Source: Rhodocyclales bacterium (GTDB lineage Bacteria > Pseudomonadota > Gammaproteobacteria > Burkholderiales > Rhodocyclaceae). From it: 64,000 bases of DNA. Where the stretch lies: assembly GCA_043743785.1 (NCBI GenBank), contig JAYTVW010000161.1:35063-99062 (forward strand), given 5' to 3'. Position numbers and translations under genes: made by a program. Under the pieces are notes generated by a model. The model ran no database searches. It was not told the origin of the DNA and saw nothing but the letters and a program-made list of their open reading frames with translations. Shown piece after piece: positions 10,957-54,032 of the stretch; position 1 is the stretch's first letter, and each line of letters opens with the position of its first letter.

Positions 10957-11137
10957 CTGAAAACCTTCCTGGCATGACGGCAAACGCCGAAATAAACTTT
11001 TTTATCACCCCCTCGAACAATCAGCACGAGGGAGCTTCACTGAATACGGATTACATCAGCTTACGTAGGGCAAGCCCGGCCATCTCTCGTTTCTGCTGCG
11101 GCGCCACAGCTTCGCTTCAATGCGCTCTTCTTACCGT

Positions 11138-11219
11138 GAAAGTCGGCACAGCCGACTCACGACGCTTCCCTCTCCCCCCGGGAGAGGGATTGAGGGTGAG
11201 GGAAGCCGACATGGCTTTC
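11138..11219. repeat. palindromic PLPPGEG-type element (family B), intergenic copy
   Basis: GAAAGTCGGCACAGCCGACTCACGACGCTTCCCTCTCCCCCCGGGAGAGGGATTGAGGGTGAGGGAAGCCGAC..CTTTC. The central palindrome CCCTCTCCCCCCGGGAGAGGG is at 11168-11188. Confidence 0.75.
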
Positions 11220-13200
11220 ATACTTTGGGGGTGGATTCCAAAGCCATGTTGGTTATCGAAGCGGCACACGGGCCGACCCTCGTTTTGGACGGGCAGGCAC
11301 TTAAGGTAGACGGGGTGGCCCCCTCCAGCAGGCAGGCTTGACGCGGGGCATACTCCGGCACCCAGCGTCGCAAATCACACCTGACTTCGGCATCATCCGG
11401 CATATGCTGCTGATGCAACCAAGCCAACAAATCGTCCAGCCAGCCCGGGGCCACCTCCCTGGCCCGCGCGATGCGAAGCTTCGGGTGGTGCGTGGGTCGG
11501 GTCTCTTCGTTGTCAGCCAGCAATTCCTCGTAAAGCTTCTCTCCGGGGCGAAGGCCCGAAAATTCGATACGGATGTCCTCTTCCGAGAAACCGGAAAGCC
11601 GAATCATGTTCCGCGCCAGATCTACGATCTTCATGGGCTCCCCCATATCCAGCACAAAAATCTCGCCTCCCTGCCCCATGCCGCCTGCCTGTAACACCAA
11701 TTGGGCGGCCTCCGGAATGGACATGAAATAGCGAATGATGTCCGGATGAGTAACCGTGACCGGACCACCCCTGGCTATCTGTTCGCGGAAGGTGGGAATC
11801 ACACTGCCGGTGCTGCCCAGCACATTGCCAAACCGGACCATCTCGAAGCGGGTTGGCGATCCCTGCTGCAGCGCTTGGCAGATCATCTCGGCCAGGCGTT
11901 TGCTGGCCCCCATGACGTTGGTTGGATTCACCGCCTTGTCCGTGGATATCAGGACAAACTTTTCCACACCATGAACCGAAGCCGCCTGAGCTACCGTCCA
12001 GGTACCCAACACATTGTTCTGCACGGCCTCCCAGGTGTTTACGTCTTCCATCATCGGCACGTGCTTGTAGGCTGCCGCGTGAAAAACAAGCGCAGGGCGA
12101 TAACGCGCCAGAATCTGGGCGATGCGTGTGCCATTCTTTACGTCCCCGATGACACAAACGATCTCCTGCCCCGGAAAGCTCTCACGGAACTCCTGCTCCA
12201 AGCTATACATGGCAAATTCGTTGGCTTCGAAAAACACCAGCAGGGCAGGCTTGTAAGCCGCCATCTGTCGGCAGAGTTCGGAACCGATGGAGCCACCCGC
12301 CCCGGTCACCATCACGACTTTATCCGCAAGCAAGGCATGCAGGCTGGCACTGTCCAGGGACACGGGTTCCCGTCCGAGGAGGTCATCCAGCTCCACCTTG
12401 CGCACCTGGGAAATGGACACCTTGCCGGAAAGAAGATCGTCGAAACCAGGTACCGTCATTACGGATAGCCCCGCTGCTGCAGCCAGTTCCACGGCCCGTC
12501 GCCGTACAGTAGGAGAGGCAGAAGGCATGGCAACAATAATCTTTTCAACACCCAATTCCTTCGCGAGCTTGCCAACCTGATCCAGGCTGCCCAGGACCGG
12601 CAAACCATGCAGCAGCTGCCCCTTTTTACTCCGGGCATCATCCAGCAGTCCCTTGACACACCAGTCCGGATGAGGAGACAGATCCCGCAGGAGCAGCGCC
12701 GCTGCAGCGCCCGCTCCCATCACCAGGACGTTGGATTTACCCGTCTCACCCCATGAAAATATGTGCCCATCTTTCAGCGCCCGGTAGAAGAAACGGCTGC
12801 CCCCCATCAGCAGAAGCAAGAGCATGGGATTCAGCACCAGGACGGAACGCGGCACCAATAACAAGTGCCTGACAATGTACAAGACTTCCGGCCCCGCCAT
12901 TGCCGCCACACCGATGGCCATGAGGATGCGCTTCAGGTCCGGCAGACTGGCAAAACGCCACATGCCCCGATACAGGCCGAAGAGCCAGAAGATCAGGACA
13001 TTCACTGGCAACACCAGCGCCACGGATTCCCACAAGGAATGGCTGAATTCACCGGGTATTTCGAAATTGAAACGCAGCAGATAGGCGAACCACCAAGCCA
13101 GAATTGTGGCGAGCCCATCGTGAATCAATATCAACAAAGTTCTAAAGCTCACCGCCCACCTCCATGGAGCCGGCACTTTCGTAGTTTCAGTTGTGCACAC
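11218..13200 (-). CDS. membrane-anchored UDP-GlcNAc 4,6-dehydratase-type polysaccharide biosynthesis protein (WbpM/CapD/PglF family)
   Basis: 660 aa. N-terminal TM segments, then VMVTGAGGSIGSELCRQ, HAAAYKHVP and MVRFGNVLGSTGSVIP, as in WbpM. GTG start. The last ~40 codons run towards a repeat element that supplies the stop. Confidence 0.85.
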   Translation of the reverse strand: MCTTETTKVPAPWRWAVSFRTLLILIHDGLATILAWWFAYLLRFNFEIPGEFSHSLWESVALVLPVNVLIFWLFGLYRGMWRFASLPDLKRILMAIGVAAMAGPEVLYIVRHLLLVPRSVLVLNPMLLLLLMGGSRFFYRALKDGHIFSWGETGKSNVLVMGAGAAAALLLRDLSPHPDWCVKGLLDDARSKKGQLLHGLPVLGSLDQVGKLAKELGVEKIIVAMPSASPTVRRRAVELAAAAGLSVMTVPGFDDLLSGKVSISQVRKVELDDLLGREPVSLDSASLHALLADKVVMVTGAGGSIGSELCRQMAAYKPALLVFFEANEFAMYSLEQEFRESFPGQEIVCVIGDVKNGTRIAQILARYRPALVFHAAAYKHVPMMEDVNTWEAVQNNVLGTWTVAQAASVHGVEKFVLISTDKAVNPTNVMGASKRLAEMICQALQQGSPTRFEMVRFGNVLGSTGSVIPTFREQIARGGPVTVTHPDIIRYFMSIPEAAQLVLQAGGMGQGGEIFVLDMGEPMKIVDLARNMIRLSGFSEEDIRIEFSGLRPGEKLYEELLADNEETRPTHHPKLRIARAREVAPGWLDDLLAWLHQQHMPDDAEVRCDLRRWVPEYAPRQACLLEGATPSTLSACPSKTRVGPCAASITNMALESTPKV

Positions 13201-20850: not shown

Positions 20851-21641
20851 GAATCAGCGTCATCGTTACCACCTACAACCGGGTGGACGCGCTGGACCTG
20901 GTGCTGCAATCCCTGTCTGCCCAGACCGACCGCAACTTCGAGGTCATCGTCGCCGACGATGGCTCCAAGGCTGAAACCGGCACCTTCGTGCAGAACTTCT
21001 CCCGCCGCTGCCCCGTGCCGGTGCGCCATATCTGGCAAACGGATTTAGGCTTTCGCGCCGGGCGCATCCGCAACCTGGCCAGCCAGGCCGCCAGCGGCGA
21101 CTATCTCATTTACCTGGATGGGGACTGCCTCGCCCAGGCGGATTTCGTCGCCCGCCACCGGGCCTTGGCCGAACCGGGCCGGACGGTCACCGGTAGCCGC
21201 ATCCTGCTGGAACAGGCACTTACCCAATCCCTGCTCCACACCCGGCACTGGGACGAAACCACCTTCCGCCGTCAGGCCTGGCGCTACCGCCTGGGAGGCC
21301 AGATGAACAAGCTGCTGCCCCTCTTGCTCAAGGTGCCGGACAACCGCCTGCGCCACTACCGGGATTTTGTCTGGCGCCGCATCAAGAGCTGCAACCTGGC
21401 CTGCTGGAAGACGGACGCGGCCGCCATCGGTGGCTTCAGCGCGGATATGGACGGGGGCTGGGGCCACGAGGACGCGGATTTCGTCTTCCGCCTGCACCAG
21501 CACGGCGTGGGGCGCAAGTCCGGCGCCTGGGCCACGGAAGTGCTGCACCTGTGGCACCCCATGGCGAGCCGGGAAAAGACCGAGCCCAACCGCCTGCGCC
21601 TGCAGGCCAAAATTGACGCCTGGCGCGCCAGTGAGCGGTGA
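20847..21641 (+). CDS. family-2 glycosyltransferase
   Basis: GTG start overlapping the previous stop (GTGA). ISVIVTTYNR ... VADDGS ... LDGDC are GT2 motifs. The stop lies inside a heptad-repeat hairpin. Confidence 0.75.
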   Translation: MRISVIVTTYNRVDALDLVLQSLSAQTDRNFEVIVADDGSKAETGTFVQNFSRRCPVPVRHIWQTDLGFRAGRIRNLASQAASGDYLIYLDGDCLAQADFVARHRALAEPGRTVTGSRILLEQALTQSLLHTRHWDETTFRRQAWRYRLGGQMNKLLPLLLKVPDNRLRHYRDFVWRRIKSCNLACWKTDAAAIGGFSADMDGGWGHEDADFVFRLHQHGVGRKSGAWATEVLHLWHPMASREKTEPNRLRLQAKIDAWRASER

Positions 21642-21697
21642 GCGGTGAGCGGTGAGCGGTGAGCAAATCATGTCGCTCACCGCTCACCGCTTACCGC
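21631..21697. repeat. heptad-repeat hairpin (GTGAGCG)n - loop - (CGCTCAC)n
   Basis: Five GTGAGCG/GTGAGCA units, an 8-nt loop, then three CGCTCAC-type units. Overlaps the stop of the GT2 gene. Confidence 0.85.
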
Positions 21698-24682: not shown

Positions 24683-24765
24683 GCGGTGACGGGTAAGCGC
24701 GCTGCTCACCGCTCACCCATCACCGCACATCGCTCACCGCTCACCCATTACCGCTCACCGTTTTC
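24680..24765. repeat. heptad-repeat hairpin region (degenerate GTAAGCG / CGCTCAC units)
   Basis: GTAAGCGGTGACGGGTAAGCG ... CTCACCGCTCACCCATCACCG ... CGCTCACCGCTCACCCATTACCGCTCACCGTTTTCC. Starts at the stop of the 24014-24682 gene. Confidence 0.7.
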
Positions 24766-24777
24766 CCGGAGACCTGC

Positions 24778-25008
24778 ATGCCTCAATCCAACCTGAAACA
24801 GCAAAAAACCTTCACCACCATCCGGGTGGTCGGCGGCCTGAGCGCAGCCGTGGTGCTGGGCTATTCCACGTTTTCCAACTGGCTGGCCGGCGCGCCCCTG
24901 AAGGGTCCCCTGCTGGGCGTCGCCCTGCTCACCCTGGCGGCCATCGCCTATGCCGGCTTTTTTACCTGGAAACTCGGCAAGCTGGTGGAAGAAGAGGGTA
25001 AGCAGTAA
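24778..25008 (+). CDS. small hypothetical membrane protein (76 aa, two hydrophobic segments)
   Basis: GGAGA 8 nt upstream of the ATG. Two TM-like stretches. Bracketed on both sides by heptad-repeat hairpins. Confidence 0.5.
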   Translation: MPQSNLKQQKTFTTIRVVGGLSAAVVLGYSTFSNWLAGAPLKGPLLGVALLTLAAIAYAGFFTWKLGKLVEEEGKQ

Positions 25009-25088
25009 GCGGTGAGAGGTGAGAAAATCATCGCTCATCGCTCATCGCTCATCGCTCATCGCTCATCGCTCACCGCTCACCGCTCACC
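24998..25088. repeat. heptad-repeat hairpin with an 8-unit (TCGCTCA/CCGCTCA) tandem array
   Basis: Left arm GTAAGCAGTAAGCGGTGAGAGGTGAGA. Right arm is five TCGCTCA units (25031-25065), then one further TCGCTCA unit and two CCGCTCA units, ending 2 nt before ATG 25089. Confidence 0.85.
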
Positions 25089-25874
25089 ATGTCCTCCGAT
25101 CCCCTGCTGGAAGCCGTCCTCAAGACCGGCGTCACCCTGCCGACGCCCAGCATCGCCTTTGCCCGTCTGCAGGCCCTGTCGGTGAGTGAGCGGGCCGGTC
25201 CAAGGGAAATGGCGGACGTGGTGGGCAAGGATCCGGCCCTCACCGGCGCCCTCATGCGGGTGGCCAATTCCCCCGTCTTCGGCTGCCGCAGCAAGCCCCG
25301 CTCCGTGCAGGACGCCATCACCCTCCTTGGCCGTACCCGCACCCTGGCGGTCTGCATCAGCACCGCCCTGCGCAGCCAGGCGGAAGGCGTGGACACCCGT
25401 ACGCTGGAAGCGGTATGGGGCGGCAGCCAGAAGGTGGCCGAAGGCGCCTGGCGCTGCGCCCAGGCCAGCCCGGCACGGCGACTGGCGGACCAAGCCTACC
25501 TGGCGGCCCTGTTACACGAAGTGGGTATTCCCATCCTGCTCAAGCGCTACCCCATCTACCTGTTTCTGTTTCAGGACCCCAAGCGTGGGCTGGAAGAATC
25601 CTCCCGGAAACTGGATGAAATAACCCAGGCGGACCACGCTGCCGTCGGCGCCATGGTGGCGCGCAACTGGAAGCTGCCAGTGGAGATTTCGGAAGCCATC
25701 CGCTGCCATCACGACGCGGCCACCGCCGGCCGCCTGCCGGAAGAGGCCGGCACCCTGGCCACGCTCATCGCCTTTGGCCGGCTGCTGCGGGATGGTCCCA
25801 CGGAGGATTGGCTCCCCTGGGCGCCCCTGGCGGATCGCTATCTGAAACTCGACCCGGCGGGGCTGGGGGATTGA
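25089..25874 (+). CDS. HDOD domain-containing signalling protein
   Basis: LPTPSIAFARLQAL ... DPALTGALMRVANSPVFG ... HEVGIPIL ... DHAAVGAMVARNWKLP pattern is typical of HDOD domains. Confidence 0.75.
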   Translation: MSSDPLLEAVLKTGVTLPTPSIAFARLQALSVSERAGPREMADVVGKDPALTGALMRVANSPVFGCRSKPRSVQDAITLLGRTRTLAVCISTALRSQAEGVDTRTLEAVWGGSQKVAEGAWRCAQASPARRLADQAYLAALLHEVGIPILLKRYPIYLFLFQDPKRGLEESSRKLDEITQADHAAVGAMVARNWKLPVEISEAIRCHHDAATAGRLPEEAGTLATLIAFGRLLRDGPTEDWLPWAPLADRYLKLDPAGLGD

Positions 25875-34767: not shown

Positions 34768-36218
34768 TCCCAGCCCCCCCCCAACGCCTTGATCAACCCC
34801 ACGCTTGCCGCCATGCGGCGGGCGCGCAGGGCGCTGGCGGTGCTTTCCGCCCCCAGGGCGGCGGCCTGGGCCGTCACCACATTGAGATAGCTGACGACGC
34901 CGGCCTTGTACTGGTTGGTGGCCAGTTCCAGGGATTTCTTCGCTGCCTGCAAGGCCTCGTCCTGCACTGACGCTTCCCGCTCCAGGATACGCAAGGCCGC
35001 CAGGTTGTCTTCCACGTCCGAGAGTGCGGCCAGCACCGTCTGCCGGTAGCTGGCCACCGTGCCTGCCCAGGCCGCCATGGCCTGGTCCTGCTTCGCGCTC
35101 CTCAAGCCGCCGTCGAAAACCGTCTGGGCCAGGGCCGGACCGAAGGACCAGAAGCGGCTGGGGGCCGAGATCCAACCCACCAGCGCCGAGGACTGCCAGC
35201 CGCCGTTGGCGGAGAGGCTCAGGTCCGGAAAGAAGGCCGCCTTGGCCACGCCGATCTGGGCGTTGGCCGCCGCTACCCGCCGTTCCGCCGCAGCCACATC
35301 CGGGCGCCGTTCCAGCAGCGTCGAGGGCAGGCCGACGGGGATGGCCGGCGGCGGCGCCGTGAGCAGGGGCATGGGCGCAAGAGCAAAGGTGGACGGGGCT
35401 TGCCCCACCAAGAGGGCGATGGCGTGTTCCATCTGGGCACGTTGCACGCCTACATCGAGAGCCTGGGCCTGGGTGCTCTTCAACTGGGTTTGGGCCTGGG
35501 CCACGTCGGCGGCAGCGGCGACGCCGGCCCGGTAGCGGTTCTGCGTCAGCTCCAGGGATTTGGCGTAGCCCGCCACCGTGTCGTCCAGCAACTTCTGTTG
35601 GGCATCCAGGGCGCGCAAGGCGTACCAGTCCTGGGCCAGGGTCGCCTGGAGGGACAGCTTTGTCGCCGCCAGGTCCGCCGCGCTGGCCTCCACCCCCGCC
35701 GCCGCCGCCTCGACAGCACGGCGCACGCCGCCCCACAGGTCCGTTTCCCAACTGGCTTGCAGGGACAGGCTGTGGCTGGTGGCCACGCCGCTGGACGACG
35801 ACGTACGGCTGGACGCCTCGGAACGTATCGACGAGGCGTTGGCGCCCACGCTGGGGAACTGGCCGGCCCTTGCCTGGGCTGAGAGGGCCACCGAAGCCCG
35901 GTACTGGGCTTCCGCGAGACGCAGGTTCTGGTTCGACACCGCCACCCGCTCTTCCAGGGCATTCAGGCCCTCGTCACCGAAAACTTGCCACCACTTGCCC
36001 CGGGGCAAGGCATCCGCCGGTACCGCCGGCTTCCAGCCGACCGCTTCCTTGAACGCCGCCGGCACCTCGCTCGTCGGCTTCACGTAATCGGGGCCGACGG
36101 TGCAGCCGGCCAGCGAAAGCAATAAAGCCAAATTAAACGCCGAGGCGCCGAGGCGCCGAGGAAGGCATGAGAACGACGAATCTTGGCAATCGTCCACGAC
36201 CGCAGATATGTTGTCCAT
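34764..36218 (-). CDS. RND efflux outer-membrane lipoprotein (NodT/OprM family)
   Basis: Lipobox LLLSLAGC, TolC-like repeats and a C-terminal ALGGGWE. The start is uncertain because the 5' end lies inside a repeat element. The TAG stop lies in a REP. Confidence 0.85.
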   Translation of the reverse strand: MDNISAVVDDCQDSSFSCLPRRLGASAFNLALLLSLAGCTVGPDYVKPTSEVPAAFKEAVGWKPAVPADALPRGKWWQVFGDEGLNALEERVAVSNQNLRLAEAQYRASVALSAQARAGQFPSVGANASSIRSEASSRTSSSSGVATSHSLSLQASWETDLWGGVRRAVEAAAAGVEASAADLAATKLSLQATLAQDWYALRALDAQQKLLDDTVAGYAKSLELTQNRYRAGVAAAADVAQAQTQLKSTQAQALDVGVQRAQMEHAIALLVGQAPSTFALAPMPLLTAPPPAIPVGLPSTLLERRPDVAAAERRVAAANAQIGVAKAAFFPDLSLSANGGWQSSALVGWISAPSRFWSFGPALAQTVFDGGLRSAKQDQAMAAWAGTVASYRQTVLAALSDVEDNLAALRILEREASVQDEALQAAKKSLELATNQYKAGVVSYLNVVTAQAAALGAESTASALRARRMAASVGLIKALGGGWE

Positions 36219-36255
36219 CGAGGTTTTCTCCGCGCCTCGGCGCCTCGGCGTTTCA
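36135..36255. repeat. octamer-armed inverted-repeat element (family A), copy 1
   Basis: AAACGCCGAGGCGCCGAGGCGCCGAGG ... CTCCGCGCCTCGGCGCCTCGGCGTTTCAA around a ~65-nt loop. Fills the mdtC-OMP spacer. Confidence 0.85.
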
Positions 36256-36265
36256 ATACAGACTT

Positions 36266-39200
36266 TCATATTCCGTTCTCCACCGGTTCCTGCACGGGGC
36301 CAGCCTTCTTGCCGCGGGCAAGCCACAGGCGGAAGCGGTCCATGTAGAGATAAACCACCGGGGTGGTGTAGAGGGTCAGGAGCTGGCTCACCGCCAGGCC
36401 ACCGACGATGGAAATGCCCAAGGGTTGGCGCAGCTCCGAGCCTTCGCCACCCCCCAGAGCCAGGGGCAGGGCGCCCAGCATGGCCGCCAGGGTGGTCATC
36501 ATGATGGGCCGGAAACGCAGCAGACAGGCCTGGCGGATGGCCTCCCGGGGGGGCAGGCCCTGGCTGCGCTCCGCCTCCAGGGCGAAGTCGATCATCATGA
36601 TGGCGTTTTTCTTGACGATACCGATGAGGAGCAGCACGCCGATCATGGCCATGACGGAGAACTCACTGCCGAAGGCCATCAGGGCCAAGAGCGCCCCCAC
36701 CCCCGCCGAGGGCAGGGTGGACAAGATAGTGATGGGGTGGATGGTGCTCTCGTAGAGCACGCCCAGCACCAGGTAGAGCGTCACCAGAGCCGTCAGGATC
36801 AGGATGGGCTGGCTGGCAAGGGACTGCTGGAAGGCCTTGGCCGTGCCCTGGAAGCTGCCCTGCACGGTAGACGGCGCCCCCACCTGGGCCATGGCGCCCT
36901 GGATGAGGCGGGTAGCGTCCGAGAGGGAGGTGCCAGGCACCAGGTTGAAGGAAATCGTCGAGGCGGCGAACTGGCCCTGGTGATTCACCGACAGGGACTG
37001 GCTGGCCGGGCCGAAGCTCGCCACCGCCGACAGGGGCACCTGGGTCGGCAGCGTGCCGGCGGCACCGGGCACGCTCAGCCACAGCTTGGACAGGGAATCC
37101 GCGTTCTGCCAGTAGCGGGGCGCCGCCTCCATGACCACGTGGTACTGGTTGAGGGCCGCGTAAATGGTGGAGGCCTGGCGCTGGCCGTAGGCGTCATTCA
37201 AGGTGGCATCCACCAGCCGGGGCGACACCCTCAGGCGGGCGGCGGTGTCCCGGTCAATGGTCACAAAGGTGGACTGGCCCTTGTCCTGCTGGTCCGTATT
37301 CACGTCCGCCAGTTGGGGCAGGTCGGAAAGAGCCTTTCGCACCTTCGGCTCCCAAGTGCGCAGTTCCGTCAGGTCGTCCGCCTGCAGGGTGAATTGCCAC
37401 TGGGCATTGCTGGCCCGCCCGCCCATGCGGATATCCTGGACCGGCTGCAGGAACAGGTTGGCCCCCGGCTCCTTCGAGAGCTTGCCGCGCAGGCGGTTGA
37501 TGACCTGGTCCGCCGACACCTGGCGTTCGCGCAGGGGCTTCAGGGCGATGAACATCATGCCGGTATTCTTCTGACCGCCGCCGGTGAAGCCCACCACGTT
37601 ATCCACCGCCGGATCCTGGCGCACGATTTCCATGAAAGAGGTGAGTTTGCCGCGCATGGCCTGGAAGGAAATGCCCTGGTCCGCCTGGATGTTGCCGGTA
37701 AGCCGCCCTGTGTCCTGCTGGGGGAAAAAGCCCTTGGGCACCACGGCGTAGAGATAGAAGTTGAGTCCCACGGTGAAGAGCAGAATCAGCATGATGAGGG
37801 GCCGGTGATCCAGAGCCCAGCCCAGGCTCCTGCCATAGCCGGCCTGCAAGCGGGCAAAGCCCTTTTCGGTCCACCGGGAAAAGCCCCCCCATCGATTACG
37901 CGGAGCATCGCGACGCTCGACGCTCCCCTCTCCCCCCGGGAGAGGGGCGGGGGGTGAGGGATCTGACTTCCGAATCGGTTTCAGCCAGCGGGCACAGAGC
38001 ATGGGCGTGGCGGTGAGGGACACCACCAGGGAAATCAGGATGGCCGAGGACAGCACCACGGCGAATTCCCGGAACAGCCGCCCCAGGATGCCCCCCATGA
38101 ACAGGATGGGAATGAACACCGCCACCAGGGACACGCTCATGGACAGCACGGTGAAGCCCACTTCCCGCGCCCCCTTGAGGGCAGCGTCGAGGGGCGTTTC
38201 CCCTGCTTCGATGTGCCGCATGATGTTTTCCAGCACCACGATGGCGTCGTCCACCACGAAGCCGGTGGCCACGGTCAAGGCCATGAGGGACAGGTTGTCC
38301 AGGCTGTAGCCGCACAGGTACATGACGGCGAAGGTGCCCCCCAGGGACACGGGCACCGCCACGGCGGGAATCAGGGTGGCGGGCCCGTTGCCGAGAAACA
38401 GGAACACCACCAGGATCACCAGGCCGAAGGAAATCATCAGACTGCGTTCCACTTCCCGCAGGGACGCCCGAATGGTGGTGGTACGCTCCACGGCCACGTT
38501 CACGTCGATGGAACCCGGAATGGAGGCCTTGAGGGCCGGCAGCAGCGCCTTCACCCGCTCCACGGTTTCGATGATGTTGGCGCCGGGCTGGCGGTTGATG
38601 ATGACCAACACGGAGGGCTGGGCGTTGGAGAGGCCGGCGTTACGCAGGTCCTCCACCGAATCCACCACTTCCTCGGAGACATCCGCGAGGCGCACGGCGG
38701 CGCCGTTCCTGTAGGAAATAATCAGGGGCAGGTATTCGGCGGCGGTGCGGGCCTGGTCATTGGCGGTGATCTGCCAGTGCTTGTCACCCTCCTCCAGGTC
38801 GCCCTTGGGGCGGTTGGCATTGGCAGCGGCCAGGGCCGTGCGCACGTCCTCCAGGCCGATGCCGTACTTGTGCAGGGCCAGGGGATTCAATTCCACCCGC
38901 ACGGCGGGCAGGGAACTGCCCCCCACGGACACCTGGCCCACGCCTTCGATCTGGGCCAGCTTCTGGGCCAGGATGGTGGAGGCGGCGTCATAGATGCGCC
39001 CCTGGCTGAGCGTCGGCGAGGTCAAGGCCAGGATCATCACCGGTGCATCCGCTGGATTCACCTTGCGGTAGGTGGGATTGCCCGGCATGCCGGTGGGCAG
39101 GAGACTCCTGGCGGCGGCGATGGCGCCCTGCACATCCCGGGCCGCACCGTTAATGTCCCGGTCCAGGTCGAATTGCAGGGTAATGCGAGTGTTGCCCAGG

Positions 39201-42698: not shown

Positions 42699-42726
42699 CA
42701 GACGATCCCTCTTTGCAAAAAGCTAT

Positions 42727-42879
42727 TTGAAACGCCGAGGCGCAGAGGCGCCGAGAACACCAAAGAAACATCCGCGGGAGCCCTTCGTAGGTCGGGTTTT
42801 AACCCGACATTCAATCTCGCTGTCGGGTTAAAACCAGACCTACGATTTTCCTCGGCGCCTCGGCGCCTCGGCGTTTCAA
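42727..42879. repeat. octamer-armed inverted-repeat element (family A), copy 3, with a nested GTAG-REP pair
   Basis: TTGAAACGCCGAGGCGCAGAGGCGCCGAG ... CTCGGCGCCTCGGCGCCTCGGCGTTTCAA. Fills the mdtA-mdtB spacer. Confidence 0.85.
42787..42843. repeat. GTAG-type REP pair, family 1, nested in family-A element copy 3
   Basis: GTAGGTCGGGTTTTAACCCGACA ... TGTCGGGTTAAAACCAGACCTAC. Confidence 0.8.
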
Positions 42880-42894
42880 TCAGTTTTTCCGGCT

Positions 42895-47217: not shown

Positions 47218-48558
47218 ATGACCAAGAAAGTCTATATCCGCACCTTCGGCTGCCAGATGAACGAGTACGACTCGGACAAGATGGTGGACGTTCTCGTCCA
47301 GCAAGCCGGAGCCGACGGCCTGGAAAAGACGGACCGCCCCGAAGACGCGGACATCATCCTGTTCAACACCTGTTCCATCCGGGAAAAAGCCCAGGAAAAG
47401 GTCTTCCACGACCTGGGCCGGGTACGCACCCTGAAACTCGCCAAGCCAAGCCTGATCATCGGCGTCGGCGGCTGCGTGGCCAGCCAGGAAGGGGCCGCCA
47501 TCATTGGCCGGGCGCCCTATGTGGACGTGGTCTTCGGGCCGCAAACCCTGCACCGGCTGCCGGAACTCATCCAGCAGCGGCGGGCCACGGGCAAGGCCCA
47601 GGTAGATGTGTCCTTCCCGGAAATCGAGAAGTTCGACAACATGCCGCCAGCCAAGGTGGAGGGGGCCACGGCCTTCGTTTCCATCATGGAAGGCTGTTCC
47701 AAGTTCTGCACTTACTGCATCGTGCCCTTCACCCGAGGTGACGAAGTCTCCCGCCCCCTGGCGGACATCCTCACCGAAATCGCCGGACTAGCCCAGCAGG
47801 GCGTCAAGGAAATCACCCTCTTGGGCCAGAACGTGAATGCCTGGCGCGGTCTCATGGACGACGGCAGTACCGCCGACCTGGCCTTCTTGCTGGAAATCGC
47901 GGCCGACGTGCCGGGGATCGAGCGCCTGCGCTTCACCACTTCCCACCCACGGGAATTCAACGCCCGGCTGGTGGACGTGTATACCCGGGTGCCCAAGCTG
48001 GTGAGCCACCTGCACCTGCCGGTGCAGTCAGGCTCTGACCGGGTGCTGGCGGCCATGAAGCGCGGCTACACCGTGCTGGAATACAAGAGCCTCGTGCGGA
48101 AAATCCGCGCCGCCCGGCCCGACATCTGCCTGTCCTCCGACTTCATCGTCGGCTTCCCCGGCGAGACCGAGGCCGACTTCGAGGCCACCATGAAGCTCAT
48201 CGAGGATGTGAGGTTCGACGCCTCCTTCAGCTTCATTTTCAGCCCCCGCCCGGGCACTCCGGCGGCGGACATGGCGGACGACACGCCAGCGGAAGTGAAA
48301 TCCGCCCGCCTCAAGCGCCTGCAGACGCGCATCGAGGAACTGGCCCAGGAAGTGAACCAGTCCATGGTGGGCAGCATCCAGCGGGTGCTGGTGGAAGGCC
48401 ACGCCAAGAAGGATGCCCTGGAACTGGCGGGCCGCACCGACAACAACCGCATCGTGAATTTCGCAGGGAATGCGCGCCTGCTGCACCAGTTCGTGGACGT
48501 ACGCATCACCTCCTCCCTGCCCCACTCCCTGCGCGGCGAGATCCTGGTAAAGGAATGA
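47218..48558 (+). CDS. miaB: tRNA-2-methylthio-N6-dimethylallyladenosine synthase
   Basis: [17 protein letters not shown]-terminus and the radical-SAM motif [12 protein letters not shown]-terminal TRAM domain. Confidence 0.93.
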
Positions 48559-48559
48559 C

Positions 48560-48690
48560 TTTGAAACGCCGAGGCGCCGAGGCGCCGAGAAACCCGAGAA
48601 CAATGCCGGTGCTGGCATCCCCGCATCCCGAGTCCGCGCATACGGGGCAGCCCTTGTCTTTCCTCTGCGCCTCTGCGCCTCGGCGTTTGA
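48560..48690. repeat. octamer-armed inverted-repeat element (family A), copy 4
   Basis: TTTGAAACGCCGAGGCGCCGAGGCGCCGAG ... CCTCTGCGCCTCTGCGCCTCGGCGTTTGA. Lies in the miaB-phoH spacer, starting 2 nt after the miaB stop. Confidence 0.85.
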
Positions 48691-48730
48691 GAACAGCTTT
48701 TCAACAGAACTCACTCCCGTCGCAGGCGCA

Positions 48731-51102: not shown

Positions 51103-51120
51103 GCCCGGTTTCAAAAGCAT

Positions 51121-51265
51121 TTTCACCGCAGAGACGCAGAGGCGCAGAGGAAAGCCAAAGCTGTCGTAGGTCGGGTTTCAACCCGACAGGCACGCGGGCA
51201 TGGACTTGTCGGGCTGAAGCCGGACCTACCGTTCTTCTCTGCGCCTCTGCGCCTCTGCGTTTCAA
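51121..51265. repeat. octamer-armed inverted-repeat element (family A), copy 5, CAGAGG variant with a nested GTAG-REP pair
   Basis: TTTCACCGCAGAGACGCAGAGGCGCAGAGG ... CTCTGCGCCTCTGCGCCTCTGCGTTTCAA. Lies in the corC-lnt spacer. Confidence 0.85.
51166..51229. repeat. GTAG-type REP pair, family 1, nested in family-A element copy 5
   Basis: GTAGGTCGGGTTTCAACCCGACAG ... TTGTCGGGCTGAAGCCGGACCTAC. Confidence 0.8.
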
Positions 51266-51280
51266 TCCGGCTTTTCAAGC

Positions 51281-52861
51281 ATGAAGTCCTCGGCCCATTT
51301 CGCCCGGGCCTTCGGCCTGGGAGTTCTGTCGGTGGGCGGGTTTGCCCCTTTCGGGCTTATTCCCCTCACGCCCCTGGCCCTGGCCGGCGTGTTTTTCCTC
51401 TGGCGCAGGCACCCGGAAAAAGCGCCCCTGGCGGGATGGAGCTACGGCTTCGGCCTGTTCCTGGCCGGCGTTTCCTGGATCTATGTGAGCCTGCACCAGT
51501 TCGGCGGCATGGCGGCGCCCCTGTCGCTGCTAGCCGTGGCACTGTTCGCCGCCGTCATGGCCCTCTACCCTCTAATTGCGGGCTGGCTGTTCCGCCGCTT
51601 CCAGGGCACAAGCTGGCTGACGGACGCCCTGTTGGCCGCAGCCTGCTGGACCCTGATGGAGTGGGTGCGGGGCTGGATGTTCACCGGCTTTCCCTGGCTG
51701 GTGGCCGGCTATTCCCAGACGCCCCCCAGCCCCCTGGCCGGCTTCGCCCCCCTCTTCGGCGTGTACGGCATCACCCTGGCGCTGACGCTTGCCGCAGCGC
51801 TCATCGCCTTCGCGTGGGGCGAACGAGCCCATCTGCGCACCAGCGGCGGCTTCCTCGGCTTATTGCTGCTGGCGGGCGCCCTGCTGCTGCCCATTGCCTG
51901 GACCACACCCCGGCCCACGGCGATTGAAGTGAGTCTGCTGCAGGGCAACATCGAGCAAAGCCTGAAATGGCGCCCGGAACTCCTGGATCTATCCCTCAAC
52001 ACTTACCAGAAACTGGCCCGGGAGAATCCGGCGCGTATCCTGGTGCTGCCGGAAACCGCCCTGCCCATCGCCCTGGAACGCCTGCCCCTGTCCTATCTGG
52101 AGACCCTGCGGGGCGGCAAGGGAGCGGGCTCGACTTTACAAGACGCCCCTGAGCATGAAAGTCGTGCCCGTTCTCCCTCCCCCCCCCGCCCCTCTCCCCT
52201 GAAGGGCGAGGGGAGCGTCGTGAGTCGCTCCGCGACTTTCGTAGAACGGGACGTGATCATCGGCGCCATCACTTTCGACCAGGCGGGCAACCCGTATAAC
52301 GCCGCCGTGAGTTTCGGCGCCGCCCCCAGCCAGCGCTACGCCAAGTCCCACCTGGTGGCCTTCGGCGAATTCACGCCGCCCCTCTTCAAATGGACCCTGG
52401 ACTTGCTGTCCATCCCCATGTCGGACCTGTCCCGGGGCACCCTGAACCAGCCGCCCCTGGCCCTGGCCGGGGAAAAGATCGCCGTGAATATCTGCTACGA
52501 GGATGTCTTCGGCGAGGAAATCATACGCGCCCTGCCGGAGGCGACCATCCTGCTGAACCTCTCCAACACCGCCTGGTTCGGGGACTCCTTCGCCCAGCCC
52601 CAACACCTGCAGATTTCCCGCATGCGCGCCCTGGAAACCGGCCGCCCCATGCTGCGCGCCACCAACACCGGCATGACGGCAGCAATCGCCCCTGATGGCA
52701 CCGTCCTGGGTGTCCTGCCCCCCTTCACCGTCGGCGCCCTGAAAGTAACGGTGCACGGCTATGAGGGCCTCACCCCCTACGCCCGCTGGGGCAACTGGCC
52801 GGCCATCCTGGCCTGCCTGGGGATGCTGGGCTACGCCGTCTGGCGCAAACGCAAGGCGTAG
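51281..52861 (+). CDS. lnt: apolipoprotein N-acyltransferase
   Basis: N-terminal TM region plus a nitrilase-like domain with LPETA, KSHLVAFGE and NICYED (catalytic Glu/Lys/Cys contexts). Contains an in-frame 84-nt repeat element at 52157-52240. Confidence 0.9.
   Translation: MKSSAHFARAFGLGVLSVGGFAPFGLIPLTPLALAGVFFLWRRHPEKAPLAGWSYGFGLFLAGVSWIYVSLHQFGGMAAPLSLLAVALFAAVMALYPLIAGWLFRRFQGTSWLTDALLAAACWTLMEWVRGWMFTGFPWLVAGYSQTPPSPLAGFAPLFGVYGITLALTLAAALIAFAWGERAHLRTSGGFLGLLLLAGALLLPIAWTTPRPTAIEVSLLQGNIEQSLKWRPELLDLSLNTYQKLARENPARILVLPETALPIALERLPLSYLETLRGGKGAGSTLQDAPEHESRARSPSPPRPSPLKGEGSVVSRSATFVERDVIIGAITFDQAGNPYNAAVSFGAAPSQRYAKSHLVAFGEFTPPLFKWTLDLLSIPMSDLSRGTLNQPPLALAGEKIAVNICYEDVFGEEIIRALPEATILLNLSNTAWFGDSFAQPQHLQISRMRALETGRPMLRATNTGMTAAIAPDGTVLGVLPPFTVGALKVTVHGYEGLTPYARWGNWPAILACLGMLGYAVWRKRKA
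52157..52240. repeat. family B element inside the lnt coding sequence
   Basis: GAAAGTCG...CCCCTCTCCCCTGAAGGGCGAGGGGAGCGTCGTGAGTCGCTCCGCGACTTTC, the reverse orientation of the 11.2 kb copy. 84 nt, starting on a codon boundary. Confidence 0.8.
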
Positions 52862-53104: not shown

Positions 53105-53220
53105 TAAACGCCGAGACGCCGAGGAATACTTGAGAAACCAATCAGCCTCACCCATTTGGTGAGCCCACGATTGTTGCCATATCTTTGTTTTCTCGGCGCC
53201 TCTGCGCCTCGGCGTTTCAA
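53105..53220. repeat. octamer-armed inverted-repeat element (family A), copy 6
   Basis: TAAACGCCGAGACGCCGAGG ... CTCGGCGCCTCTGCGCCTCGGCGTTTCAA. Starts 2 nt after the DUF3820 gene stop. Confidence 0.8.
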
Positions 53221-53225
53221 ACAGT

Positions 53226-54032
53226 TCAGCGCGGGAAGTTCAGGGTGGTGGGGAAGGTCAGCTCATAGATGCGGTAGCTGCCGGAGCCCTGGGCGCTGGC
53301 GAGTTTGTAAGCACTCCTGGCTGACTGCAGGAGCAATTCGGCCTCCACCCCATGCTCGGGAAACAGGCTGATGCCGATGGCGGCGCCCACATGGACGGCG
53401 CTTCCGTCCGCCAGCGTGAGGGGCGTCTGAAGCAAGCGAATCATTTCCAGCGCCAGGGACTCTGCATCCAGGGAGGCGGCCAGGTTTTCCAGCACCAGAA
53501 CAAAGTGATCGCTGTCAATCCGCGCCAGGGTATCCAGTTCCCGCCAGCGCTGTTTCAGGCGTTGGGCCACCCCCTGCAACACCTCCTCCTGGGCGCCGAA
53601 ACCCCGTTGCCCATCCGGTCCGATATATAGCACGGCACCAAGCTCGCCATTGCGACGCACCCGCGCCAGGGTATGGTTCAGGCGAATGGAGAGCAGCAAG
53701 GGGCTGGGCAGGTCGGTCACGGCGTCGTAGAGGTCCGCATGTTCCTCGGGTCTGGTCTCGGCAAGCGCCGTGGGCATGGCCCGGTCAGGCGCCGTGTCCC
53801 CCCCTTCTTTCCCCGCAGCAGGCGCTATTGGCCCCGCGCCGTGAGGAAGGGCCGTTCTGCCCTCGAGCATGCTGACAATTCCGCCGTGAGCACCTTTGGC
53901 CGTTGCGCCATAGGGCGACTCCAGCAGCAGGGGAACATAGGTTTGGAAAGCGTCCAGCGCCTCCTCCCTTGAGAACACCTCGAAGGTAAATCGCAGATCC
54001 GGATTTGAGTCGGAAGAAACGGTGATCTTCAT
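53226..54032 (-). CDS. degenerate GGDEF-domain protein
   Basis: C-terminal half aligns with diguanylate-cyclase domains (DAVTDLPS ... LARIDSDHFVLVL ... IGISLFPEHG), but the GG[DE]EF site reads IDSDHF. Confidence 0.65.
   Translation of the reverse strand: MKITVSSDSNPDLRFTFEVFSREEALDAFQTYVPLLLESPYGATAKGAHGGIVSMLEGRTALPHGAGPIAPAAGKEGGDTAPDRAMPTALAETRPEEHADLYDAVTDLPSPLLLSIRLNHTLARVRRNGELGAVLYIGPDGQRGFGAQEEVLQGVAQRLKQRWRELDTLARIDSDHFVLVLENLAASLDAESLALEMIRLLQTPLTLADGSAVHVGAAIGISLFPEHGVEAELLLQSARSAYKLASAQGSGSYRIYELTFPTTLNFPR

Follow-up and report, generated by a model that had tools for sequence, protein, structure and literature searches.

How can a palindromic repeat lie within the coding sequence of a conserved envelope enzyme while the reading frame stays open? 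This question is raised by a 64,000-nucleotide (nt) stretch of DNA from a Rhodocyclales bacterium of the family Rhodocyclaceae (hereafter the window; C161:35063-99062 of G000, a 171-contig, 4.6-Mb assembly of 62% G+C), which carries lnt, the gene for apolipoprotein N-acyltransferase (Lnt). A first-pass annotation, made from the nucleotide letters, had placed a member of a repeat family in frame within the part of this gene that encodes the nitrilase-like domain. Relative to all the orthologues examined, a member of the family is indeed inserted in lnt, and the frame is open. The insert is very probably a non-autonomous repeat of three hairpins, with about 125 copies in this uncultured Rhodocyclaceae genome, resembling a transposable element of the miniature inverted-repeat type (MITE) or a composite repetitive extragenic palindromic (REP) sequence, and the enzyme would be made with about 40 extra disordered residues.

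The insertion is documented by comparison with the same gene in other genomes. The match to the window Lnt is broken at residues ~279-322 in 40 of the 40 relatives with a match, leaving one piece at residues ~10-278 and another at ~323-516. In G001, a genome of the same genus, the two pieces lie 6 nt apart and the alignment reads AALRP--AGSDLILG. Where the window protein has LRGGKG-AGSTLQDAPEHESRARSPSPPRPSPLKGEGSVVSRSATFV-ERDVIIG, the sequence is LRGNGKDTDVVIG in P0002, the database homologue that comes closest (79% identity). Measured against the 40 relatives and 23 aligned database homologues, the window protein has an excess of 40-42 residues, which matches a full-length element. Neighboring Lnt sequences come from genomes of Rhodocyclaceae such as Zoogloea, Dechloromonas, Azonexus, and Accumulibacter. 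Codon usage sets the insert apart as well: with a log-odds model trained on 806 long open reading frames (ORFs) of G000, the insert scored -1.30, which is non-coding-like, and the lnt flanks scored a gene-like +0.55 and +0.73. The idea that a native loop of Lnt had been the source of the repeats is rejected on this non-coding codon usage and on the absence of the segment from every Lnt orthologue examined.

The limits of the insert were revised in the process. The first-pass annotation had described an element of 84 nt that begins exactly on a codon boundary, about 25 residues after the catalytic Glu of the LPETA motif. This segment is present within the lnt ORF; it reads GAAAGTCG...CGACTTTC, starts at codon 293, encodes ESRARSPSPPRPSPLKGEGSVVSRSATF (residues 293-320), and has a predicted fold much more stable than those of shuffled sequences (z = -4.5). 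As bounds of the element, its ends are too narrow, the family consensus being ~121-122 nt long with an additional 5' hairpin arm, which in lnt (CGGGCTCGACTTT, from 52125) lies upstream of the start of the segment (Table 1). The start on a codon boundary holds for the 84-nt segment, but not for an end of the element, since this point is internal to it. The distance to the active site changes too, the segment starting 35 residues after Glu258 and the true boundary lying ~23 residues after it. The whole element in lnt is predicted to adopt a three-hairpin fold of -65.3 kcal/mol (z = -4.3), and the lnt sequence flanking its two ends is GAG and GAA.

Table 1. Positions in the window of lnt, of its catalytic codons, of the inserted repeat with its parts, and of two further copies of the family.
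Feature	Position	Strand	Basis
lnt (apolipoprotein N-acyltransferase), 526 amino acids	51281..52861	+	Pfam LNT_N 1.4e-36, CN_hydrolase 2.1e-27
Codon of catalytic Glu258 (LPETA)	52052..52054	+	Invariant alignment column
Full repeat element, ~120-126 nt, in frame, residues ~281-322	52122..52246 (+/-3 nt)	+	Consensus alignment, orthologue gap, codon log-odds
Hairpin 1, CGGGCTCGACTTT / AAAGTCGTGCCCG, 12/13 pairs intact	52125..52170	+	RNA fold
84-nt segment of the first-pass annotation, inner part of the element, extending from hairpin 1 (its 3' arm) through hairpin 3	52157..52240	+	
Hairpin 2, central G+C-rich palindrome CCCCTCTCC...GGGCGAGGGG, encoding Pro/Ser ... GEG	52187..52208	+	
Hairpin 3, GTGAGTCGC TCC GCGACTTTC, CGTC directly 5'	52219..52241	+	
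Codon of catalytic Lys355 (KSHLVAFGE)	52343..52345	+	Invariant alignment column
Codon of catalytic Cys405 (NICYED)	52493..52495	+	Invariant alignment column
Full-length intergenic reference copy, 122 nt, TAAC...TAA	11137..11258	-	
Partial copy in mdtC-like RND permease gene, frame as in lnt	37900..37971	-	ACR_tran 1064 bits

The assignment of the insert to a repeat family was borne out by profile searches. Using BLAST and then an iterated nhmmer profile, 134 matches were found in G000, 129 of them non-overlapping, and the lnt copy itself matched the family profile with E = 4.7e-15, its best match among the other copies of the genome having ~90% identity over 67 nt. When copies were aligned with longer flanks, conservation set in sharply at TAAC and stopped at TAA, with 121-122 nt as the commonest length of a unit that consists of three hairpins. 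The consensus can be written TAAC-cGnCATGGCttt-(loop)-aaGCCATGcCgG-TTTCCCTCACCC-..-CCCTCTCCCg..GGGaGAGGG-AGCGTcGTGAGTCGc-loop-gCGACTTTCACg.TAA. Hairpin 3 has the outline AGCGTC followed by GTGAGTCGC-loop-GCGACTTTCAC, its stem measuring 7-9 bp and its loop 3-4 nt. The two outer hairpins vary by compensatory changes. In hairpin 1, one position of the stem shows all four Watson-Crick pair types (paired in 24 of 30) and a second shows three (paired in 28 of 30), and in hairpin 3 an extra G:C pair is present in 22 copies and absent in 33, never being found on one arm alone. It follows that selection acts on the structure of the element itself, as one would predict of a repeat that is mobile or depends on its structure.

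Full-length copies are abundant in G000 and in the sole other genome of the genus, and sporadic elsewhere in Rhodocyclaceae; the central palindrome alone is more widespread and is the part of the family most widely common across the Rhodocyclaceae. The window has no Rfam match that reaches the gathering threshold, the reference copy drew only chance-level hits under permissive settings, and no description of this repeat family turned up in a literature search on Rhodocyclaceae. The conserved termini of copies across the genome, such as the reference copy at 11137-11258, often fall on stop codons of neighboring genes: in eight copies, an upstream ORF that looks coding terminates at the 5' TAA, and in six, a converging ORF terminates at the 3' TTA(A/G) as read from the opposite strand. 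Possibly the element targets TAA or is itself a source of stops.

The protein that carries the insert has the features of a complete Lnt. Both the LNT_N membrane domain and a CN_hydrolase domain with its Glu-Lys-Cys triad are present, and in an alignment of 24 sequences (the window protein and the 23 homologues), all invariant columns are kept in it, including E258, K355, and C405, so the Lys and Cys contexts are intact, as had been claimed. An AlphaFold2 model of the window Lnt has a confident Lnt fold (mean predicted local distance difference test score, pLDDT, 83.8; predicted template modeling score, pTM, 0.85), in which residues 282-319 form the sole segment with pLDDT <50 and have no secondary structure; the insert is thus predicted as a disordered excursion between helix 270-276 and strand 324-332, with the rest of the model confident. 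The best superposition was on Escherichia coli Lnt (TM-score 0.83 when scaled to query length, 0.88 when scaled to the target), and Pseudomonas aeruginosa Lnt was also matched. In the sequence alignment, the insertion site lies directly after the residue aligned to position 286 of the E. coli Lnt chain. Length varies at this loop among Lnt homologues, P0006 and P0007 having smaller inserts. At the same loop (alignment columns 440-490), P0003 and P0005 carry larger, unrelated inserts rich in Lys, Gly, and Asp. A separate observation concerns six other Lnt sequences (P0080, P0098, P0102, P0108, P0117, and P0119), which share a 20-residue, SGITPASRALASSETPGRFH-like insert in columns 323-342, just before the periplasmic domain; it is absent from the other homologues of the alignment and is possibly another repeat-derived insertion.

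Whether lnt is an isolated case can be judged from the rest of the family in the genome. For about 14-16 of the 129 copies (~11-12%), the surrounding frame continues through the repeat without a stop, and codon usage is gene-like in either flank. Twelve genes with in-frame copies are supported by Pfam: besides lnt, these are argJ, purL, uvrD, an alpha-2-macroglobulin gene, an mdtC-like RND pump gene, a fadB-like gene, an Eco57I-like gene, and genes for an AraC-type regulator, a 2-oxoacid dehydrogenase E2, a PD-(D/E)XK nuclease, and a GT9 heptosyltransferase. Two sets of candidates were rejected. A 952-codon ORF on C121 spans a repeat copy and has a coding-like score, but it has no Pfam match and runs antisense to the lolF-type gene, and copies near MltA and MFS genes are not intragenic, lying upstream of the Pfam-supported parts of the ORFs.

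Orthologue checks covered five hosts (lnt, argJ, the AraC-type gene, mdtC, and uvrD). In argJ, the copy adds exactly 30 residues (90 nt), is in the opposite element orientation, and is absent from eight of the eight relatives searched; at the empty site in G001, the two pieces of the gene abut (2880/2881). The AraC-type gene has ~37-43 extra residues (...PHPLSRRGRGERSESLRD...) read from the same strand in a different frame, and these are absent from the homologues in G001 and G002. The copy in mdtC is read on the same element strand as in lnt, as the first-pass annotation had stated, and also in the same frame. Two mdtC orthologues from other genera are 27-30 residues shorter, and the same pattern was seen for uvrD, judged by length. 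The G001 orthologue of mdtC carries an insert at the same place, diverged and in frame, that reads TPSPRLRGEGDVVSRG (L041, G001:C56:9200-9700). By these comparisons, the repeat in mdtC, presumably translated, has been retained long-term in the window's species and in the sister species G001.

The lnt frame (...PSPPxPxPxGEGSV...) is the commonest among the hosts, being used in lnt, mdtC, purL, the fadB-like gene, uvrD, and one of the alpha-2-macroglobulin copies. The copies in the E2, GT9, Eco57I-like, and PD-(D/E)XK genes, and others in alpha-2-macroglobulin, are in yet other frames or orientations. Together with the opposite orientation in argJ and the different frame in the AraC-type gene, they contradict the earlier suggestion that a single orientation and frame is tolerated. 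The alpha-2-macroglobulin ORF, of 2051 residues (G000:C126:7607-13759, L024), holds at least four in-frame copies or fragments in differing frames and orientations. Among 28 full-length, mostly intergenic copies, the lnt frame is open in seven; the usual loop of hairpin 3, TGAC, gives an in-frame TGA, and the lnt copy has TCC in its place.

Altogether, Lnt is most likely made with a disordered periplasmic surface loop of ~40 residues and is active; we infer that the insert is translated and that Lnt activity is retained, and likewise that the element is, or once was, mobile through an enzyme of some kind. The insertion site is the turn that, in the periplasmic nitrilase-like domain, joins helix 270-276 to strand 324-332. 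Persistence would then have depended on an added length divisible by three (120-126 nt), on a copy free of stops in the frame where it landed, and on a G+C-rich core that yields a non-folding peptide rich in Pro, Ser, Gly, and Arg, looping out at a position where Lnt varies in length. Survival inside a gene needs such a length, a stop-free variant, and a permissive loop; the use of frames results from selection after insertion, not from design.

Several points weigh against this reading. An allele of the window's species with an empty site was not found, and the junction in argJ, compared with G001, shows no clear target duplication. Contigs of JGI metagenomes gave 0 matches to the empty-site allele and likewise 0 to the filled junction, so they have no bearing on polymorphism. 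The search for a second intact lnt found none in G000, in which there is one full match and the other seven Lnt matches are repeat copies in translation; with the assembly 92.5% complete, a second lnt cannot be strictly excluded. Moreover, a single LolC/E-family gene lies above the NCBIfam cut-off in G000 (C121:14087-15343), which implies that the Lol system has the LolF arrangement, with LolDF-type lipoprotein export. This arrangement is known from Alpha- and Betaproteobacteria, and lnt was dispensable in the species tested there (PMC7240156). With a LolF-type system, lnt may be less strongly selected than it is in E. coli, and the intact frame is therefore a weaker proof of function. A sub-optimal Lnt may also be tolerated better than in E. 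coli, though the gene is clearly conserved. Of the earlier description of an in-frame repeat inside the nitrilase-like domain of a normally essential gene, the first part stands, whereas essentiality is doubtful in view of the single LolC/E-family gene.

Other explanations of the insert have been weighed against the same evidence. One is that it has been co-opted and positively retained because the loop or the mRNA hairpins are useful, for instance as a flexible periplasmic tether, as a protease-sensitive switch, or in the control of translation or mRNA stability. The three hairpins are nearly perfect in the lnt copy and fold strongly, and inserts of the family are kept in frame in two species in mdtC and apparently in uvrD. 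However, a young insertion equally predicts intact hairpins, the same-genus genome G001 and the closest homologue are without the lnt insert, and the encoded peptide varies with gene, frame, and orientation, which argues against a common function at the protein level. Altogether, co-option is unlikely.

A second explanation, that lnt is becoming a pseudogene, supposes that the insertion crippled the enzyme and is tolerated since LolF exports diacylated lipoproteins. The single LolC/E-family gene, the dispensability of lnt in LolF-type bacteria (PMC7240156), and the position of the insert within the catalytic domain would all fit. Set against this, no stop interrupts the 526-codon frame, each invariant column is retained, the catalytic triad included, and codon usage is strongly gene-like in both flanks; the insert also falls in a loop whose length varies in other Lnt proteins and is modeled as a disordered excursion from an otherwise confident structure, and identical sequences were obtained from independent assemblies. 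Decay of the gene is, on this evidence, very unlikely.

An assembly artefact, in which the repeat would have induced a misjoin in this metagenome-assembled genome, might be suspected in a draft of 171 contigs with more than 100 copies of the family. Unique lnt sequence is found on both sides of the insert in one frame, however, and the lnt copy is unlike every other copy in the genome. Furthermore, because the identical Lnt protein occurs on three contigs and a separate ENA assembly (L021) has 99.97% identity over 7.6 kb across the locus, insert included, a misassembly is improbable in the extreme. It is scarcely conceivable that the insert is missing from the mature product through ribosome skipping or removal at the RNA or protein level, at which its very stable structure merely hints, as an open frame would then be needless, neither intein nor intron signatures nor an Rfam match were found, and inserts of the family in other genes differ in frame and orientation.

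The insertion of a repeat family into lnt with retention of the frame recalls several systems described in other bacteria. Rickettsia palindromic elements (RPEs) are palindromic repeats of ~100-150 bp that recur in frame in housekeeping and metabolic genes, where they encode peptides judged compatible with the fold of the host protein (Ogata et al. 2000, Science 290:347, as summarized in PMC10969869); nearly half of the 44 RPE insertions reported for Rickettsia conorii are inside genes (PMC10969869). The likeness lies in a multi-copy palindromic repeat with recurrent in-frame insertion into unrelated protein-coding genes. The differences concern the host, which here is a free-living betaproteobacterium of 62% G+C and for RPEs an A+T-rich obligate intracellular alphaproteobacterium; the intragenic fraction, ~11-12% here vs nearly half of the R. 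conorii RPEs; and the way the repeat is read, which here involves several frames and both orientations and gives a Pro/Ser/Gly-rich peptide predicted to be disordered. Owing to this use of frames and orientations, the family as a whole encodes no single conserved peptide. Given the host lineage and the G+C content, homology to RPE sequences is unlikely, and the resemblance is one of behavior rather than membership.

By the usual definitions of small repeats, the family agrees in part with MITEs and is not a GTAG-tagged REP. Copies of ~121-122 nt without coding capacity, dispersed as 129 non-overlapping matches, agree with MITEs in size and copy number. The termini, TAACCG... and ...CGGTAA, are complementary at only ~5 of 6 positions and the strong inverted repeats are the internal hairpins; a 5' TAAC and a 3' TAA occur together in 31 of 71 copies, and no empty site shows a single TAA. 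A search for Y1 transposases, the sole transposase type sought, found one gene (C86:2760-3119), on a contig without a match to the family. At 122 nt, with three hairpins and no GTAG head, the family lies outside the REPs associated with RAYT transposases; GTAG-type REPs occur separately in the window (family D10). Correia elements (NEMIS) of Neisseria are betaproteobacterial repeats of ~100-155 bp with high copy number and RNA hairpins; their features include terminal inverted repeats of 26 bp, a TA duplication, and a site for integration host factor (IHF), and they act mainly in intergenic regions. Such terminal repeats, TA duplication, and IHF site were not seen in the present family.

Sporadic intragenic MITEs and REPs are known in Coxiella and other bacteria (PMC5896051, PMC3733652). 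ERIC/IRU sequences (Delihas 2007), QMITE1 and QMITE2 of Coxiella (PMC5896051), and the MITEs of Anabaena (PMC10969869) are, like the family described here, small, non-autonomous, and mostly intergenic, with occasional in-frame fusions or extensions of host proteins. They differ in that these are mostly C-terminal extensions or involve hypothetical proteins, vs a mid-domain insertion into a core enzyme here, and in that clear terminal inverted repeats and target duplications have been documented for them, unlike the present family, with which they have no known sequence relationship. Another outline to compare is that of the CGTC-tagged REPs, short hairpin repeats which carry CGTC at one end and have 8-9 bp in the stem and 4-5 nt in the loop, are found in coding regions as well, include RPE-4 and RPE-6 of R. 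conorii, and have no dedicated transposase known (PMC3733652). Hairpin 3 of the family, with CGTC directly 5' of its stem, resembles them in general form, but here the CGTC hairpin is merely the 3' third of a 122-nt unit of three hairpins, and the A/T found at the first two stem positions in most published families is lacking. The relationship is a lead rather than demonstrated membership.

Other repeats are found in the window. Tandem 7-nt arrays (GCTCACC or GCTCATC, and their complement) occur in three places within 3.5 kb, at 21631-21697 and 24692-25110 (families D1 and D5; I12-I20). A second repeat family, whose arms consist of CGCCGAGG-type octamers in tandem with TTGAAA/TTTCAA as caps, is present at 36124-36268, 42718-42891, 48553-48703, 51113-51277, and 53182-53232, with one copy directly upstream of lnt. 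Some copies of this octamer family have GTAG-type REPs (CGTAGGTCGGGTTT...) nested within them (families D4, D7, D10, and D17 together).

The family inserted in lnt behaves as a known kind of event, RPE-like in-frame repeat insertion, and reveals no new mechanism. It provides a clean, orthologue-checked case of a repeat lying within a conserved envelope enzyme, in its catalytic domain, the host being a free-living betaproteobacterium of high G+C. With about a dozen more cases in this genome, at least one of them kept across species, this suggests that RPE-like colonization of genes in frame is more general than the classical Rickettsia examples. A further proposal, speculative and rather doubtful, is that the family is a coding-compatible betaproteobacterial counterpart of RPEs, whose G+C-rich palindromic core would give disordered Pro/Ser/Gly peptides in nearly every frame and would seed new surface loops in core proteins such as Lnt, ArgJ, PurL, UvrD, and RND pumps, some of them kept through speciation and possibly co-opted. 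If this were true, free-living bacteria would regularly gain new loops through repeat insertion, and the process would not be a rickettsial oddity. Apart from this proposal, the insertions described here explain odd Pro/Ser/Gly-rich inserts in annotated proteins of metagenome-assembled genomes, and they mark loops tolerant of insertions of 30-40 residues in Lnt, ArgJ, UvrD, and RND pumps.

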